From the IMG/VR virus record IMGVR_UViG_3300037851_000461, positions 1 through 59,218 of that record: DNA of 59,218 nucleotides. One strand, written 5' to 3'. Within the stretch, counting starts at the first letter, position 1; each line of letters opens with the position of its first letter. This DNA is from a virus (lineage: Duplodnaviria; Heunggongvirae; Uroviricota; Caudoviricetes). The position numbers and the translations under genes are program-made. This document shows positions 43,890-57,981 of this stretch, piece after piece. The notes beneath the pieces are model-generated. The model had not been told where the DNA came from and did no database searches. It saw nothing but the letters and a program-made list of their open reading frames with translations.

Positions 43890-45395
43890 TTACAGCACGA
43901 TCTGCTCGTATCGTGCCGAATTGATCACTTCGAGCATGAACTCGTAAGGCGTTTGTGACGCGCCCTCAAGAACCTGCTTCATGATGGATGGCGAACATCC
44001 CGAGACGAGGGTTACCCCACGCTCGTTCTTGGTCACCGGAGATTGTGTCTGACGCGCCTGCACGTTCCAGAAGACTACCTGTGGCAGTTCATATCCGGCA
44101 GCAGCGTACTTGCGCTTCATTGCGTCGAAGTTTGTACCTCCGTCGCTGACGCAGTTGAATTCCATGTCGGAAATGATCATCAGCGTGGCTGGCATTTCGT
44201 CGGCAGGAACATCGTTCTCAACAGCAGCCTTGAGGATGTTGTTGAATGCAGCCTGTAGGTTGGTTGAACCTCCCCACTCTGCTTGCGACAGGTTGTGATA
44301 CTTGCTCCAAAGGTCGGAACCCTTGAGAGAAACAAGTTTCGAGTCGTCCGAGAACGTCATGAAGTGATTCGCGAAGAATCCCTTGTTTCGCTCCGCAAAG
44401 TAAATTGCAAGAGAGATACACACATCGATTGGCTTTGGTGACGAACTTGCCCAAGTCATAGACCCGGAAACGTCGGCGACAACCAACGCATTGCGCTGAT
44501 TCTTGCCAAGGTAGTTCGGAAGTGCCTTCCATTGCGCCTCAAGAGTCTTGAGCGCAGCATCGCCACGGCTCGTCGAACGAACTTCCCGAAGGATATCGTA
44601 AGGGAACAGGGTAGACGCGTTGACCTTGGAAGTTCCCTTTGCGAGACCTTCCTGCCACTTCGAGTAACGCACGCTGTCGTGCTTTGCGAATGCCTTCTTA
44701 TAGAGTTTTGCCGCGTAAGAAGGAACGTGGTCGTAGTTTACACCCGACCAGCCACGAGCCGACATGAGTTTTTCAACGACCTTGAGTCGCGAACGGAGAC
44801 GCGAGAGCGTCTTGCGGTAACGCTTGTCGTTCCACTCAAGCAACTGAACGAGACGGCGAGCCTGAGCACGCGTCTGTGCGCTTGAAGTGTTGATCGAAGG
44901 CATCCACTTCGCCACGAGGGTAAGAGTGGAGTCGTCGTCATTGGAAACGTCAACCTTGAACTGCTTGAGCATTACCCAAGCAGCCTCGTCGAACACCGGG
45001 GTTCCCCAAGTTGCGTCGAGAAGGTCATCCCAACGTCCGTAGAGCGGGATGTGCTTGAGAGTCTTCATTGCCACGGCTGGGTAGTTTACACACAGCCACT
45101 TGAAGGCAATACGGAAAGTGTTTCGCTCACCCTGACCACCACGGCAGTCGCGGAGATAGAAAATCGTACGGAGAGCCTGAACAGGATTCTCGTCGAATGC
45201 CTCTGAGAAGAGGGTCTGAACCTCAGCCTCGGAGCGTTGGCGGATTGCACCACCGGTTGAGAACAAATCCAACACCTTCGACTTGGTTGAAGCGAAAGTA
45301 AGAGCGCCATTCTCAGTTTGAGTCATGACGGTTGGGTTCTTGAGTGCCGAAAGCAGGGCTGACGACTTTTTGCGAGTCTTTTGAGCAGTATTCAT
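43890..45395 (-). CDS. DUF2828 TROVE/vWA-like (Ro60-related) protein
   Basis: TENGA..F.ST...LDLF, FYLRDCRGGQGER, YGRWDD, AKWMPS, VNASTLFPY, VADVSGSM (MIDAS), ISDMEF, GCSP. Confidence 0.85.
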   Translation of the reverse strand: MNTAQKTRKKSSALLSALKNPTVMTQTENGALTFASTKSKVLDLFSTGGAIRQRSEAEVQTLFSEAFDENPVQALRTIFYLRDCRGGQGERNTFRIAFKWLCVNYPAVAMKTLKHIPLYGRWDDLLDATWGTPVFDEAAWVMLKQFKVDVSNDDDSTLTLVAKWMPSINTSSAQTRAQARRLVQLLEWNDKRYRKTLSRLRSRLKVVEKLMSARGWSGVNYDHVPSYAAKLYKKAFAKHDSVRYSKWQEGLAKGTSKVNASTLFPYDILREVRSTSRGDAALKTLEAQWKALPNYLGKNQRNALVVADVSGSMTWASSSPKPIDVCISLAIYFAERNKGFFANHFMTFSDDSKLVSLKGSDLWSKYHNLSQAEWGGSTNLQAAFNNILKAAVENDVPADEMPATLMIISDMEFNCVSDGGTNFDAMKRKYAAAGYELPQVVFWNVQARQTQSPVTKNERGVTLVSGCSPSIMKQVLEGASQTPYEFMLEVINSARYEQIVL

Positions 45396-45437
45396 AGTTT
45401 GATTCCTCGGTTTAGAAGGTTTCTGTTTGTGAGACGT

Positions 45438-45468
45438 ATAACTATCCACACTTTTTCACGAAAGTCAA
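45438..45468 (-). promoter_or_regulatory. Promoter for the DUF2828 gene
   Basis: TTGACT-N18-TAGTTAT. Confidence 0.55.
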
Positions 45469-53428: not shown

Positions 53429-54351
53429 TAGGCGTTGATTCCATCAACCCTTCTACGGAATAGGAGGGTGAAAGTTAGTCTTTCCGATCCAACCGAAGGA
53501 TTGATTGCCATTTCGACACTACTTCCGGTTTGAACGAATGCTGATGATGTGTTTGACGCGGTTACCATCTGCCCAGCGGATGATGATGCTATGAATGACA
53601 GACCGGCTACGGGAGAACCATTGATTGTTACTGCCAGCGAACTAGAACCAAGCCATGTTGCGGCAAATATTCCGTCAATGTACATTTGGTTTGGAGCATA
53701 ATTGACCAAGTGCATCACGTTTGATGGAACCGGAAATTCGATTTGACCTGAAATCATGTCCTTGAACCACATTTGGGTCGCATCGACAGATTGAGTTATC
53801 GAATAGAAGTTTCCAGTTGCCGGACCGTAAACACTTCCCGAGAACGAGCCTGAATAACTCTGATAGAAACTGTTGGTTATTTCAACGGATTGAGAAACTG
53901 AATAGAAACTTCCTGTGTATGATCCGCCTGTGAAACTTCCCGAGAACGAGCCACTATACTGGTAGAAATATTCTACATTGTAACTGTTTGTGACTTCGAA
54001 TGATTGAGTGACTATGTAGAACGTTCCCGTCATCGGACCGATGAACGTGCTGCCCGAGAAAGAACCCGTGTACTCATTGAAACTCTGTGTGATCGATGCT
54101 CCACCCGCTGAGAATGGCTCGTACGTAGCCATTGGTGGTGCTGATGCCGTAGTCAGTTTGTAATAAACACCATCAGATTGAACGTAAACCAACATACCAA
54201 CACGCTGACGTTGGAGAGGAATCTGAAGCATATCGGCTGACGACGAAACGCTTCGCAAACCGTCAACACCCAACAGTGGGTCGATGACGGCATAAACGTC
54301 CAACGGGCTGTTGGTTGAGAGTAAGCCTGAAATTGGTACTTCGCCTGCCAT
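53428..54351 (-). CDS. Structural protein with three SGSF repeat modules
   Basis: YTGSFSGS, YSGSFSGS (x2); N-terminal GLRSV...GMLVYV...YYKL. Confidence 0.6.
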   Translation of the reverse strand: MAGEVPISGLLSTNSPLDVYAVIDPLLGVDGLRSVSSSADMLQIPLQRQRVGMLVYVQSDGVYYKLTTASAPPMATYEPFSAGGASITQSFNEYTGSFSGSTFIGPMTGTFYIVTQSFEVTNSYNVEYFYQYSGSFSGSFTGGSYTGSFYSVSQSVEITNSFYQSYSGSFSGSVYGPATGNFYSITQSVDATQMWFKDMISGQIEFPVPSNVMHLVNYAPNQMYIDGIFAATWLGSSSLAVTINGSPVAGLSFIASSSAGQMVTASNTSSAFVQTGSSVEMAINPSVGSERLTFTLLFRRRVDGINA

Positions 54352-54353
54352 GG

Positions 54354-55340
54354 TTATGATACGGTCACTGAAATTGCATTACCCACACTTGGAACAGCAG
54401 AGTAATACAGATTGTAGTTTCCTAAGTTGACTGAATACTGGTTGATGAAATTGGAAGTCGTCTGCAAAATGGTTGGATATGTGAGAGCAACTTGCATGAA
54501 CGTTGAGGTTCCGAATCCTGATGGGTATAGCCAGAAGATAAGACCTCCGGGCGACGTGAAACTGCTCAAATCCCACACATTCGTTCCTGTAAACTTTCCA
54601 GAAGCAAGTTCGCTTGTGTCGAGAAGAATTCCCGGCACCATTGCCAATGCTGAATGGTTCGTGACTGCCAAAAGTTGTGGCAAACTGCTTGCGGGGATTC
54701 TTCCTCTGTAGCGGCGTGCTCTCCATGCCACAGTGTAATTGGAAGAGAATGATCCGGAGTTCGTGTTCGTTCCGGAAATTCCAAACGTTTCTGTGGCATT
54801 GATGGTGGTTTTGTTAATTGCGGTCGGAATGTAAATGTTTCGATTTCCCGTATTCAAATTCGGTCCGTCTGGATTTACGGGAAGGTTTGGATTGGAAATA
54901 TAGATCGACGGGTTGGCGACATTTGCTGAATTGCTGGTTGACCATGAGAATGTCTTGGTTCCGGCAACTATTGGATTTCCAACTTCCATGGTAGTCGATT
55001 GACCGACAATGCCAAATGATGTAAACGCTGGGTTCTGATAAGGATAGAACATCGCGTCGAACATTTGTTTAATGCTTCGAGAAACAAATGTGGTTCCCGC
55101 TGAGATACCTCCGACAGAGACCGTTGCCGGGAGAGGGTTGGTATATTTCTCACTCGGGCTTCCGGCGAGAATCCATTGTGATCCGTCGCAGTAATAGAGC
55201 GTTCCGTTGTCTTGGTCCGTAGCCAGATAGAACGAATCATCGTACTGTGCCAAGGAACTTGTGGGGAAATAGATGCCATCTCCACCAATAGGTCTTGCGG
55301 CTAATGAACCACTTAGAAGAATTCTGTTTACTGCGATCAT
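54354..55340 (-). CDS. Structural protein, S/T-rich
   Basis: 328 aa; ATATTTATAA at 55350-55358, 9 nt upstream. Confidence 0.6.
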   Translation of the reverse strand: MIAVNRILLSGSLAARPIGGDGIYFPTSSLAQYDDSFYLATDQDNGTLYYCDGSQWILAGSPSEKYTNPLPATVSVGGISAGTTFVSRSIKQMFDAMFYPYQNPAFTSFGIVGQSTTMEVGNPIVAGTKTFSWSTSNSANVANPSIYISNPNLPVNPDGPNLNTGNRNIYIPTAINKTTINATETFGISGTNTNSGSFSSNYTVAWRARRYRGRIPASSLPQLLAVTNHSALAMVPGILLDTSELASGKFTGTNVWDLSSFTSPGGLIFWLYPSGFGTSTFMQVALTYPTILQTTSNFINQYSVNLGNYNLYYSAVPSVGNAISVTVS

Positions 55341-55403
55341 ACGTCAAGTTATAAATATGACCGGTGCCAACAAATGAGACGACCAAAAGTAAAAAGAGAT
55401 GGA

Positions 55404-55451
55404 TGGTGGAGTTGAAGGGATTGAAATGTGCAGTGAAATCCGATCACCTCC
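55404..55451 (-). other. 48-nt tRNA/tmRNA-end-like remnant ending in CCA
   Basis: GGAGGTG...TTCAATCCCTTCAACTCCACCA; 6/7-bp acceptor-like stem; the 3' part matches 18 of the 23 nt at the tmRNA 3' end. Confidence 0.55.
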
Positions 55452-55463
55452 ATATTTATTCAC

Positions 55464-56045
55464 ATGAAAACAACTAACGTTCAGTGTGAGTGGTGCAATA
55501 TCAACTTCAACATATCCCAATCTGAATTTAATAGAAAGAAGAAGAAGCGAACTTCGTTCTTTTGTAGTAGAACATGCTCCGCACATCATAGAAATGCAAC
55601 GGTGCCAAAAAATTCGTGGGCAAAGCAATATGAAAGAAATAAGAGTGTGTTTGATATAAAAACCCACGCAAGCAATAGGCTCGATGAATACTCTCCATTT
55701 AGAACATTCTTGTCATCGGGAAGAAGGAGCATACAAAAACATGAGGTAAAAATCACACCAGCCCATCTCAAGGAAGTATGGGAATCACAGAGAGGTATTT
55801 GTCCATACACCGGGATAAAAATGCTACTGCCGCCGACGACGAAGGATTACACATCAACAAGAAATCTGTCCAAAGCCAGTTTGGACAGAATCGATTCATC
55901 CAAAGGATACATAGAAGGCAACGTAGAATTTGTGTGTATGGCAATCAATCTTGCCAAGAACAATCATTCTAAGAAAGAGATGGTCAATTTCATCAATAGT
56001 ATTGACCGGGAACACATTCAGCATTACTCAAGCGCAACCACGTGA
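55464..56045 (+). CDS. HNH/His-Me finger endonuclease with N-terminal Zn-binding motif (putative free-standing homing endonuclease)
   Basis: CEWC...FCSRTC; CPYTG...SLDRIDSSKGY.EGNV.FVC..IN.AKN; ATATTTATT 3 nt upstream. Confidence 0.8.
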   Translation: MKTTNVQCEWCNINFNISQSEFNRKKKKRTSFFCSRTCSAHHRNATVPKNSWAKQYERNKSVFDIKTHASNRLDEYSPFRTFLSSGRRSIQKHEVKITPAHLKEVWESQRGICPYTGIKMLLPPTTKDYTSTRNLSKASLDRIDSSKGYIEGNVEFVCMAINLAKNNHSKKEMVNFINSIDREHIQHYSSATT

Positions 56046-56066
56046 AGGTAGTGTTCATCTGCGCTC
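56030..56066 (-). other. 3' trailer hairpin of the tmRNA precursor
   Basis: GAGCGCA/UGCGCUU outer and ACUAC/GUGGU inner stems with G-U pairs on the - strand. Confidence 0.5.
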
Positions 56067-56067
56067 G

Positions 56068-56448
56068 TGGACTTGGCGGGATTTGAACCCGCATCTTCAG
56101 AACTTTGCCCCACTCGTTTACAAGCGTATCCCTACTTAATCGGATGGTGTGTCGAAAGGGCTCTAACACCAAACTTGTTTCAGTTCAATTTGACGATTAC
56201 AGAAACCTCTATCGTCCTCATTCGTAGTGTCAATGATTCAACCCTACCACGAAAATCTCGTGCTGAATCATACTGCTTTTTCTTTCGATTAAGCAGCAGC
56301 GAGTTCCTCAACATTGCTGGTGAGGAAGTTCGTCTTTACCAAGTTTGACTTAGCGTTTATGTTTGTGCGGATTCTTTTAAGGAAATACCGTACGTCTTCC
56401 TGCTTGTGGATATGGGACTACGCTATGAATCGAATCCATAACAAGCCC
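56068..56448 (-). ncRNA. ssrA: tmRNA (381 nt), tag (A)AKSNLVKTNFLTSNVEELAAA*
   Basis: 5' GGGCTTGTTATGGATTCGA; 3' GCGGG-TTCAAAT-CCCGC-CAAGTCC-A; perfect acceptor stem with G3-U70; resume codon GCT after ATAAAC; tag ORF 56354-56289. Confidence 0.95.
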
Positions 56449-56456
56449 AAATTGCA

Positions 56457-56652
56457 AAAGTCGGTGAAGAGGGGTCTACTCATTCACAGGTCTCGTTGTG
56501 GCAAAGCCTCACTTTCGGGGAGACCACCTATTCAGCACTCCTTCGGATTTTCGACTACATAAGAGATTCCTACTTGACTTGTGCTGACCGAACCTAGGAA
56601 TGTCTATTGCTAGGTTAAGGAGTTAAAATGGCGACCCCTCTACACCGACTTC
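56457..56652 (-). ncRNA. Unidentified ~196-nt multi-branched structured RNA
   Basis: 20-nt terminal inverted repeat (18 WC + 1 G-U + 1 mismatch) enclosing three further stems; lies between a promoter and the tmRNA; no credible ORF. Confidence 0.7.
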
Positions 56653-56673
56653 TACATCATTCAAAGAACATGA

Positions 56674-56704
56674 ATAAGTATCGCCAAAAAACGGCTAATG
56701 TCAA
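56674..56704 (-). promoter_or_regulatory. Promoter for the ncRNA-tmRNA transcript
   Basis: TTGACA-N18-TACTTAT. Confidence 0.65.
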
Positions 56705-56758
56705 TCACTTTTTGAGAATTTATAGAACCCATTAGTAGAATCTTCTGTACTTATAGGT

Positions 56759-57376
56759 ATGGAATACCAACCATTTATCGTCTCCAACATCACCTACCTA
56801 GGTCACGACACCGGTCCGGGTGATGAATCGTCTCTCGGCTTCACCGAAGACAAGAGACCCGTCAATCTGGTAGGCTGCATGATCGACGGAAGCAATGGCT
56901 CGTGGGGATTGAAGTTCAAAGGCAATAAGGATGTTCATGTCTACGAGTGTCGAGTGTTCAACGGAACCGCAGCAACAATGGATGTTGAGGGCGGATCGCA
57001 CTATCAGTTCAGAAAGACAAGTTTCGAAGACAAAGGATATCGCAAGATCAAGCCGAAGAAATTCTGGCGCAGACAATCCGACGTGTGCCTTCGCTCTGGT
57101 GCTAGTTTTCTCGTGTTCGACGAATGCAAGATGAACGATGTTTTGGTCGGAACAATTGAAGATATTCTCCTCGGGAAACCGATGGTTAGTGACGTTTTCA
57201 TCGACAAGTGCACTTCATTTGACGGTGAGAAAATTGATGTTCGCGTTTTGCACGGAAAGAACATCGTAGCGCCAAACTGCAATGTCATTTATTACAACAA
57301 GTATCTGGTCAAGGCTTACTGCCTATGGTTCAGAGCAAAGACGTTCATCAAATCGCGGATCACGAAGAAAAAATAA
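56759..57376 (+). CDS. Short right-handed beta-helix (pectin-lyase-like) protein
   Basis: GCMIDG...WGLKF...DVHVYECRV repeats; basic amphipathic C-terminus. Confidence 0.55.
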   Translation: MEYQPFIVSNITYLGHDTGPGDESSLGFTEDKRPVNLVGCMIDGSNGSWGLKFKGNKDVHVYECRVFNGTAATMDVEGGSHYQFRKTSFEDKGYRKIKPKKFWRRQSDVCLRSGASFLVFDECKMNDVLVGTIEDILLGKPMVSDVFIDKCTSFDGEKIDVRVLHGKNIVAPNCNVIYYNKYLVKAYCLWFRAKTFIKSRITKKK

Positions 57377-57378
57377 CC

Positions 57379-57981
57379 ATGTCTGAAGCCCACTATAATG
57401 AATATTGGAAAGCCGTTCCGGGTGAGCGTGCCGCCAAGTCATTTGGATCAATCAATGGTCTCTATCTACAAGGTTGTCGAATTGACGGTGATATGTCGGA
57501 GTGGGGATTGAAGGTATCAAACTCAACCGACGTTAATGTGGTTGGATGCTATTTGAAGAATGGATTCGACCGGGCATTTGATATGGTTCGTGGTGCTGAT
57601 GTGCACGTTGACGACTGCCACTTTTCCATCACAAACGGATCAAGAAAGAAGTTTGGATGGCTCCGTTTGTTTTCCAAGGAATGTGACATTGGTCTCAAGG
57701 GAGGAATTCAAGGCGGTTTGATTGAAAATAGTGCCGTTGATAGCATTTTGATCGGCGACTACAGCCTATACGATCAAGCGAAGAAATTTCCACCCACTCG
57801 CAACATCGAAGTAAGAAATTGTCGCAATCCTTATGGCGGAAAGGTAACCGTTCGCGTTTGGCACGGCGAGAACGTCAAGGTTGATGACACGTGCCGATTG
57901 ATAGTTTTTCCAAAGTGGCTCACGTGGATTTACTTCACGGTGAGAAAGTGGATAGATAAGACACCCATTCCACCCGCTTGA
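57379..57981 (+). CDS. Paralogous beta-helix protein
   Basis: GCRIDG...WGLKV...DVNVVGCYL; collinear with 56759-57376. Confidence 0.55.
   Translation: MSEAHYNEYWKAVPGERAAKSFGSINGLYLQGCRIDGDMSEWGLKVSNSTDVNVVGCYLKNGFDRAFDMVRGADVHVDDCHFSITNGSRKKFGWLRLFSKECDIGLKGGIQGGLIENSAVDSILIGDYSLYDQAKKFPPTRNIEVRNCRNPYGGKVTVRVWHGENVKVDDTCRLIVFPKWLTWIYFTVRKWIDKTPIPPA

Follow-up and report, generated by a model that had tools for sequence, protein, structure and literature searches.

Certain mobile endonuclease ORFs of fungal mitochondria, typified by that of Allomyces atp6, bring with them a replacement gene terminus. Phage T4 possesses free-standing homing endonucleases, including SegB (GIY-YIG; tRNA cluster) and MobE (HNH), and operators which resemble homing sites, as well as upstream hairpins, have been described for I-TevI and several T4 homing genes (PMC2988022). 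The theta ribozymes are minimal HDV-like ribozymes located at the 3′-ends of phage tRNAs (Kienbeck et al. 2024, PMC10879173); 4.5% of their partner tRNAs encode CCA, and the word tmRNA is absent from that paper. Of the papers matching a literature search for tmRNA together with homing endonuclease, the 15 of 97 that were listed do not treat the topic in title or abstract. Here we describe a phage locus at which a tmRNA gene, a predicted ribozyme of the theta type and a gene for a putative endonuclease adjoin one another.

The source record is 123 kb in length and is estimated to be half complete; the window, by which we mean the whole stretch of DNA that was analysed, constitutes its first 59 kb (59,218 nucleotides). 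The virus is an environmental T4-like jumbo phage carrying one tmRNA and 46 tRNA genes, on the minus strand throughout, and 13 T4-type late-promoter boxes (TATAAATA) are found across the 123-kb record. A nucleotide search of GenBank phages with positions 54300-57400 returned no matches. The neighboring tail-fiber-like gene has no relatives among the viral contigs, and the upstream neighbor of L052, used as the query, matched only itself. A protein of 519 amino acid residues encoded elsewhere in the window (43890-45449, minus strand) matches phrog_850 ("RNA-binding protein") at 5e-144, and might be linked to RNA end processing or repair. The features of the locus are as follows:

55350-55357, plus strand: T4-type late-promoter box (TATAAATA) facing the nuclease gene
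55404-55425, minus strand: 22-mer ending in CCA (the "displaced copy"), being the distal arm of a stem-loop plus CCA; from sequence match tests
55407-55452, no strand assigned: imperfect palindrome, or stem-loop, at the 5′-border of the nuclease gene; from folding and counterparts in relatives
55447-55459, plus strand: 13-nt motif, comprising the end of the proximal arm and an A/T-rich box, directly upstream of the nuclease ATG
55464-56045, plus strand: intact gene for a putative endonuclease of 193 amino acid residues; from the ORF, PHROGs and a homologue alignment
55865-55889, minus strand: perfect 10-bp hairpin with a T-rich tail, within the nuclease ORF
56010-56066, minus strand: predicted minimal HDV-like (theta-type) self-cleaving ribozyme, 57 nt; from covariation and a weak match to RF02682
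56067(56065)-56448, minus strand: phage tmRNA gene; from ARAGORN and Rfam RF00023

The tmRNA gene scores 80.1 bits against RF00023, for which the gathering score is 47, and the tag reading frame given by ARAGORN specifies 21 residues. The two strands of the acceptor stem pair at seven of seven positions, including G3-U70. The 3′-terminus reads GTCCA and is followed by CGA instead of CCA, whereas CCA is encoded in nearly all of the 46 tRNA genes of the record. The original prediction had described a tmRNA without an encoded CCA and a CCA-ending copy of its end beyond an antisense ORF, and both observations stand: the 22-mer is situated 642 nt downstream of the tmRNA and agrees with its end at 18 of 23 aligned positions, with one gap.

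The nuclease gene runs antisense to the tmRNA and is the sole ORF in the interval between the latter and the 22-mer; its final 12 codons (stop counted) lie antisense within the ribozyme. Over its length the GC content falls to 37-42%, compared with 45-49% nearby. PHROGs searches place the protein with phrog_3322 (1e-20) and with endonuclease, EndoVII and HNH families at 1e-20 to 5e-11. Pfam yielded no families at E values up to 0.01, and no HNH match, and a profile search of the PDB gave a weak PacI-like match (E 0.06). The N-terminal region possesses an FCS-like zinc finger (CxxC...C...C), and the C-terminal region an HNH/EndoVII-like ββα-metal motif. The motif region is conserved in five homologues, with D-R-I-D at the position where many HNH proteins carry the first histidine. 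We regard the product as a putative HNH-type endonuclease.

A profile of the five homologues recovered 79 viral loci (cited here by L numbers) with 36-52% identity. A tmRNA is found within about 150 nt of the nuclease gene in 63 of these (46 by ARAGORN and 17 more by Rfam), and several of the remaining loci adjoin tRNAs. Two layouts exist among the 63: a convergent one, as in the window (13 loci), and a co-directional one, in which the tmRNA is followed by the nuclease gene (50 loci). The co-directional family was also collected by means of a conserved tmRNA word, which gave 54 loci with a tmRNA; the nuclease gene is present in 34 and missing in 20. A look-alike of the T-loop-to-discriminator segment lies between tmRNA and nuclease, 3-8 nt past the tmRNA end, in about 24 of the 34, and is missing in 18 of the 20 nuclease-less loci, occurring alone in L155 and L163. 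The element therefore comes and goes without an integrase, and the tRNA-like fragment along with it. The co-directional loci (L062-L132, L134-L211) are marine T4-like contigs.

A further stage is presumably represented by the following feature of a related locus:

L354, about 1020-1110 (also L350 and L349): deletion scar, consisting of ribozyme, eight antisense codons, CCA-ending far stem-loop and terminator

Just the first eight codons of the nuclease gene persist here, between the ribozyme and the far element, and the arrangement looks like a snapshot of homing-gene loss. The nuclease locus of the window contains no intron, and it differs from an ssrA island of the integrase type in having no integrase gene and no exact repeat of the tmRNA 3′-end. 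Because the element is variably present among relatives and has left a deletion scar, mobility is supported, and the cassette can be viewed as a putative integrase-free mobile endonuclease element tied to tmRNA 3′-ends. At the family level, then, the proposal of a minimal integrase-free homing element is borne out by the 63 of 79 loci beside a tmRNA, the presence/absence pattern and the scar, and that of the tmRNA end region as its presumed target by the association with tmRNA and tRNA flanks.

A group I intron at the window locus was also considered and rejected, since the T-arm and acceptor are complete ahead of the nuclease gene and the searches detected no intron at this site. Group I introns scoring 72-86 bits are present in L116 and L119 (3072-3302) and in L125 (3024-3280). 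The intron of L116 splits the T-loop of the tmRNA, with a nuclease of the same family just past the 3′-exon; from their position, those of L119 and L125 presumably split the T-loop likewise.

The sequence adjoining the tmRNA end matched RF02682 in a relaxed Rfam search (56010-56067; 15.6 bits, where the threshold is 44; E 3.6), and the HDV-type Rfam families gave no matches to the ribozymes of four relatives at E values up to 1. The predicted fold comprises a P1 of 7 bp with G-U as the first pair, a P2 of 6-7 bp, a P3 of 3 bp, a P1.1 of 2 bp and a very short P4; the first position of J4/2 (alignment column 48) is an invariant C, with N-R-A after it. Among 12 distinct sequences (an earlier version of the covariation test employed six), 99.5% of the cells in the double pseudoknot are paired and 12 of the 18 pairs have changed on both sides. 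None of 500 shuffles was as good, and slid alignments paired at 28-39%. The first pair of P1 is G-U in ten of the 12 and A-U in two. In most of the loci compared, G1 immediately follows the discriminator; it is shifted by one base in the 3′-direction in the window, and by one base in the 5′-direction in L347 and L348. The window, L054, L055 and L058 share a conserved stretch that reaches from the tmRNA end to the stop codon of the nuclease gene and has compensatory changes in its stems. The conserved ribozyme nucleotides are, by our reading, in different frames of the antisense nuclease gene in the window and in L058, and the conservation there is consequently not protein-coding.

A loose version of the ribozyme pattern matched 80 loci, nearly all of them coding matches, and a loose descriptor scan produced many false matches in AT-rich DNA, of which only those directly after an acceptor end were kept. 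With the specific pattern, tmRNA plus ribozyme was found without the nuclease in the L345 group, L355 and L348, and with it in L347 and L357. Ribozyme and nuclease are thus separable, and each is found without the other. Ribozymes of this kind also lie behind plain tRNAs (L032 and L251). In L032 (1574-2500), which belongs to the same phage as L009, such a ribozyme stands behind a tRNA, and within the ribozyme begins a cysteine-rich ORF of 296 residues; by eye, the ORF looks like another nuclease, distinct from that of the window.

Presence of the ribozyme coincides with absence of CCA (window, L054, L055, L058), and CCA is encoded where there is no ribozyme (L056, L061, L087), a pattern counted in six of the seven convergent loci compared; L126 and L127 are off-pattern, with CCA absent and a ribozyme undetected. 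The missing CCA is most likely explained by a self-cleaving ribozyme that would trim the 3′-end of the tmRNA. In the window the predicted cut would leave a tmRNA ending in ...GUCCAC, for which reason CA would remain to be added. A search for a CCA-adding enzyme (PF01743) in the 123-kb record, which is approximately half of the genome, was negative.

One critical question is whether this unusual end belongs to the tmRNA or came with the cassette. The same CCA-less end and ribozyme are found in nuclease-less relatives, namely the five loci of the L345 group, L355 and L348, and since such tmRNA-ribozyme units exist without the nuclease, the CCA-less end is independent of the cassette. In the co-directional family the GTCCA ends without CCA are identical in the 34 nuclease-bearing and the 20 nuclease-less loci. 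Furthermore, the 3′-acceptor strand covaries perfectly with its own 5′-strand, locus by locus. Judged from these comparisons, the resident 3′-end is native and the gene complete. The tmRNA-ribozyme units share 44-69% identity overall, the nearest nuclease-less relatives being 46-51% identical to the window; at this distance the ancestral state of the window lineage is one that we infer.

The 22-mer is unique within the window, and over the 2 kb downstream no sequence matches the last 20 nt of the tmRNA better; agreement is at 16 of 20 positions, including a gap. One of 200 mononucleotide shuffles was equally good, and the likeness modestly exceeds chance. Two of the phage's tRNAs equal or surpass the tmRNA in their match to the 22-mer, and the likeness is therefore generic to tRNA-type 3′-ends. 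Both arms of the stem-loop resemble the T-loop-to-discriminator segment of a tmRNA. The structure, which ends 12 nt ahead of the nuclease ATG, is of modest stability (−13.1 kcal/mol on the minus strand, z −1.8; −17.2 kcal/mol on the plus strand, z −2.6). Stable hairpins occupy the same place in nine of 11 convergent loci (z −2.2 to −6.5), L055 and L347 being the exceptions, and their inner stems differ in sequence yet stay complementary. All convergent loci have in common a CTCCAC plus A/T-box motif 4-7 nt before the ATG, which in L116 and L126 forms a direct instead of an inverted repeat; the outer arm terminates in CCACCA in most loci. The stem-loop accompanies the nuclease gene also where the tmRNA encodes CCA (L056, L061, L087), and the hairpin is kept in the L354-type scar. 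In the clean nuclease-less loci, a search of the downstream sequence (500 nt in L345 and L355; 318 nt in L348) revealed none. We conclude that the stem-loop probably belongs to the cassette and either derives from or mimics a CCA-encoding tmRNA end. The far element was rejected as a simple intrinsic terminator of the window, there being no T-run directly after it; some relatives have a separate terminator beyond.

Several signals surround the nuclease start. Every convergent relative carries a variant of the 13-nt motif ahead of the ATG, and on the minus strand this motif resembles a late-promoter box followed by GGAG. A second exact copy of the 13-mer occurs at record position 73573 (73561-73600), in a TTGACA-type sigma-70-like promoter heading a tRNA array; on its other strand, this copy too displays a late-promoter-like box with GGAGG. 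The arrangement of promoter box and GGAG was seen at two other sites in the record, one of which has a proper start codon. A search for a sigma-70 promoter serving the nuclease gave no convincing −35 box. The tmRNA-ribozyme transcript may terminate at the 55865-55889 hairpin, which is antisense to the conserved portion of the nuclease ORF that encodes the motif. On the minus strand between 55344 and 55460, a strong Shine-Dalgarno-like run (GGAGGTGAT) comes after a late-promoter-like box, and no standard start codon follows; the open frame after GGAGGTGAT stops 4 nt before the ATG of the tail-fiber-like gene.

It is probable, in our estimation, that the locus consists of a free-standing, integrase-free homing endonuclease cassette directly behind a native tmRNA-ribozyme unit, and that the 22-mer is an arm of the cassette's own stem-loop. 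According to the original prediction, the cassette had supplied a replacement 3′-end and displaced the original one. Such a mORF-like event would involve a block in which the nuclease gene was joined to a new T-arm/acceptor end and perhaps to the ribozyme; this block would have entered the T-loop of a CCA-encoding tmRNA and pushed the old 3′-end about 640 nt downstream. The far arm does start in a T-loop-like manner, its spacing is the expected 5+7+1 and its terminus is CCA; its likeness to the tmRNA is beyond chance, and far arms with CTCCACCA recur among relatives. In L347 the 7-nt acceptor strand is identical in the far arm and in the tmRNA of that locus, in keeping with a local origin there, and the relic of the T-loop-to-discriminator segment beside the tmRNA of co-directional relatives is of the kind to be expected. 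Against this, the nuclease-less relatives, distant as they are, keep an end of the near type, like that of nuclease-bearing loci and unlike the far arm. At every locus the near end forms a perfect stem with the 5′-strand of the same tmRNA, and the far element is present even where the resident end has CCA. The tmRNA of the same locus is never the best match to the arm, ranking between 4 and 43 of 46, and neither the complementary 5′-arm nor the direct-repeat versions would be explained. With the ribozyme accounting for the missing CCA and the far sequence being one arm of a cassette-linked stem-loop, replacement and displacement are not upheld, and we deem them very unlikely.

The 48-nt element might instead be a neutral, now functionless relic of a second tmRNA, that of a former resident or of a donor, internally deleted to a 5′-acceptor/D-like part and a 3′-part from T-loop to CCA. 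Its minus strand indeed reads as a tmRNA 5′-end and then a 3′-end with ACCA, and by hand count the L354 arm agrees with the authentic 3′-end of the L061 tmRNA at about 20 of 23 positions. In four of eight loci the arms resemble tmRNA ends more closely than do shuffled versions of themselves (p at or below 0.015). The resemblance of the inner arm to a 5′-end adds little, however, because a tmRNA 5′-end approximates the reverse complement of the 3′-end and the two likenesses are dependent evidence. With nuclease proteins only about 50% identical, 48 neutral nucleotides should have decayed, but the stems still pair and GGAG/CUCC with A3-U70 is common to all; moreover, the relaxed Rfam search returned no match at the far element, tmRNA included. 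We therefore hold a neutral relic to be decidedly unlikely. An accidental origin, by which a late-promoter plus GGAG signal and its complement happen to look like an acceptor, would be in keeping with the two other promoter-box and GGAG sites (one with its proper start codon), with the recurrence of the 13-mer in the promoter at 73573 and with tRNA 3′-ends matching the 22-mer as well as the tmRNA. This is highly improbable given the shuffle result (1/200), the T-loop-like part and CCA which the far arms of the window and L354 have in common, and the consistent placement of the element at the nuclease start across loci.

Returning to the cassette behind a native tmRNA-ribozyme unit, the following sequence of events can be envisaged. 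Transcription would proceed through the tmRNA, and the ribozyme would cut the precursor at the tmRNA 3′-end, to which CA or CCA would then be added by a nucleotidyltransferase; the tmRNA-strand transcript may terminate at the 55865-55889 hairpin. Either the late box (55350-55357) or the A/T box beside the ATG could drive expression of the nuclease. The enzyme would cut nuclease-less tmRNA loci and be spread by recombinational repair from the occupied allele, in the manner of the Seg and Mob endonucleases of T4. The stem-loop would form the 5′-border of the cassette and travel with it; its target-like sequence would be an inheritance from an earlier host tmRNA that encoded CCA, or would have been retained as a putative binding site.

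As to its function, we prefer, by inference only, a role in the control of nuclease expression, as an operator or hairpin. A more elaborate version, in which the parts are read jointly, is that the stem-loop is a homing-site mimic bound by the nuclease to throttle itself, that the ribozyme-capped CCA-less end is an immune allele because the CCA half of the recognition site has been removed, and that ribozyme, tmRNA and homing gene form a single co-adapted module; alternatively, the stem-loop might be expressed as a tRNA-like minihelix RNA with a function of its own. This we find unlikely.

The locus unites phage ribosome rescue, self-cleaving ribozymes as makers of RNA 3′-ends, and selfish homing genes. 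If the ribozyme matures the tmRNA, the role of theta ribozymes reaches past tRNAs, and the lone CCA-less state of the tmRNA in this phage is accounted for as well. A nuclease family specialized on tmRNA flanks would constitute a new natural set of sequence-specific enzymes, and would also mark gene flow among uncultured jumbo phages. A word of caution follows for annotation: tRNA-like fragments beside homing genes need not be integration scars.

Comparison with known systems brings out both parallels and departures. Like integrase-borne ssrA islands and prophages, the locus has an ssrA 3′-fragment some way downstream; unlike these, it is without an integrase, the interval is 0.64 kb, the repeat is inexact (16/20) and a hairpin stands at the border of the nuclease gene. 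The Allomyces atp6 type corresponds to the architecture first proposed for the window, with a functional end, an endonuclease and a displaced old end, but here the nuclease-less relatives point to a native functional end, and the far copy is linked to the cassette. As with the control of I-TevI, a putative target-like sequence lies just upstream of the nuclease ORF, beside late-promoter-like boxes, and a hairpin precedes the start; the window element, a putative operator, differs in being a palindrome of two target-like arms with no sequestered Shine-Dalgarno sequence. The predicted ribozyme shares with theta ribozymes the double pseudoknot, the G-U first pair, the catalytic C opening J4/2, the very short P4, a cut site at the 3′-end of a tRNA-like acceptor and a partner gene lacking CCA. 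It departs from them in that its partner is a tmRNA, in a phage whose tRNAs nearly all encode CCA, and in being overlapped on the opposite strand by a nuclease ORF. Finally, SegB and MobE of T4 differ from the window nuclease, which adjoins a tmRNA in convergent orientation, overlaps a ribozyme and combines an FCS-type zinc finger with a PacI/EndoVII-like motif. What the window has in common with these T4 genes is a small intergenic nuclease gene, without intron or integrase, situated beside a conserved presumed target gene, variably present among relatives, and preceded by a hairpin in a T4-like phage with late-promoter boxes.
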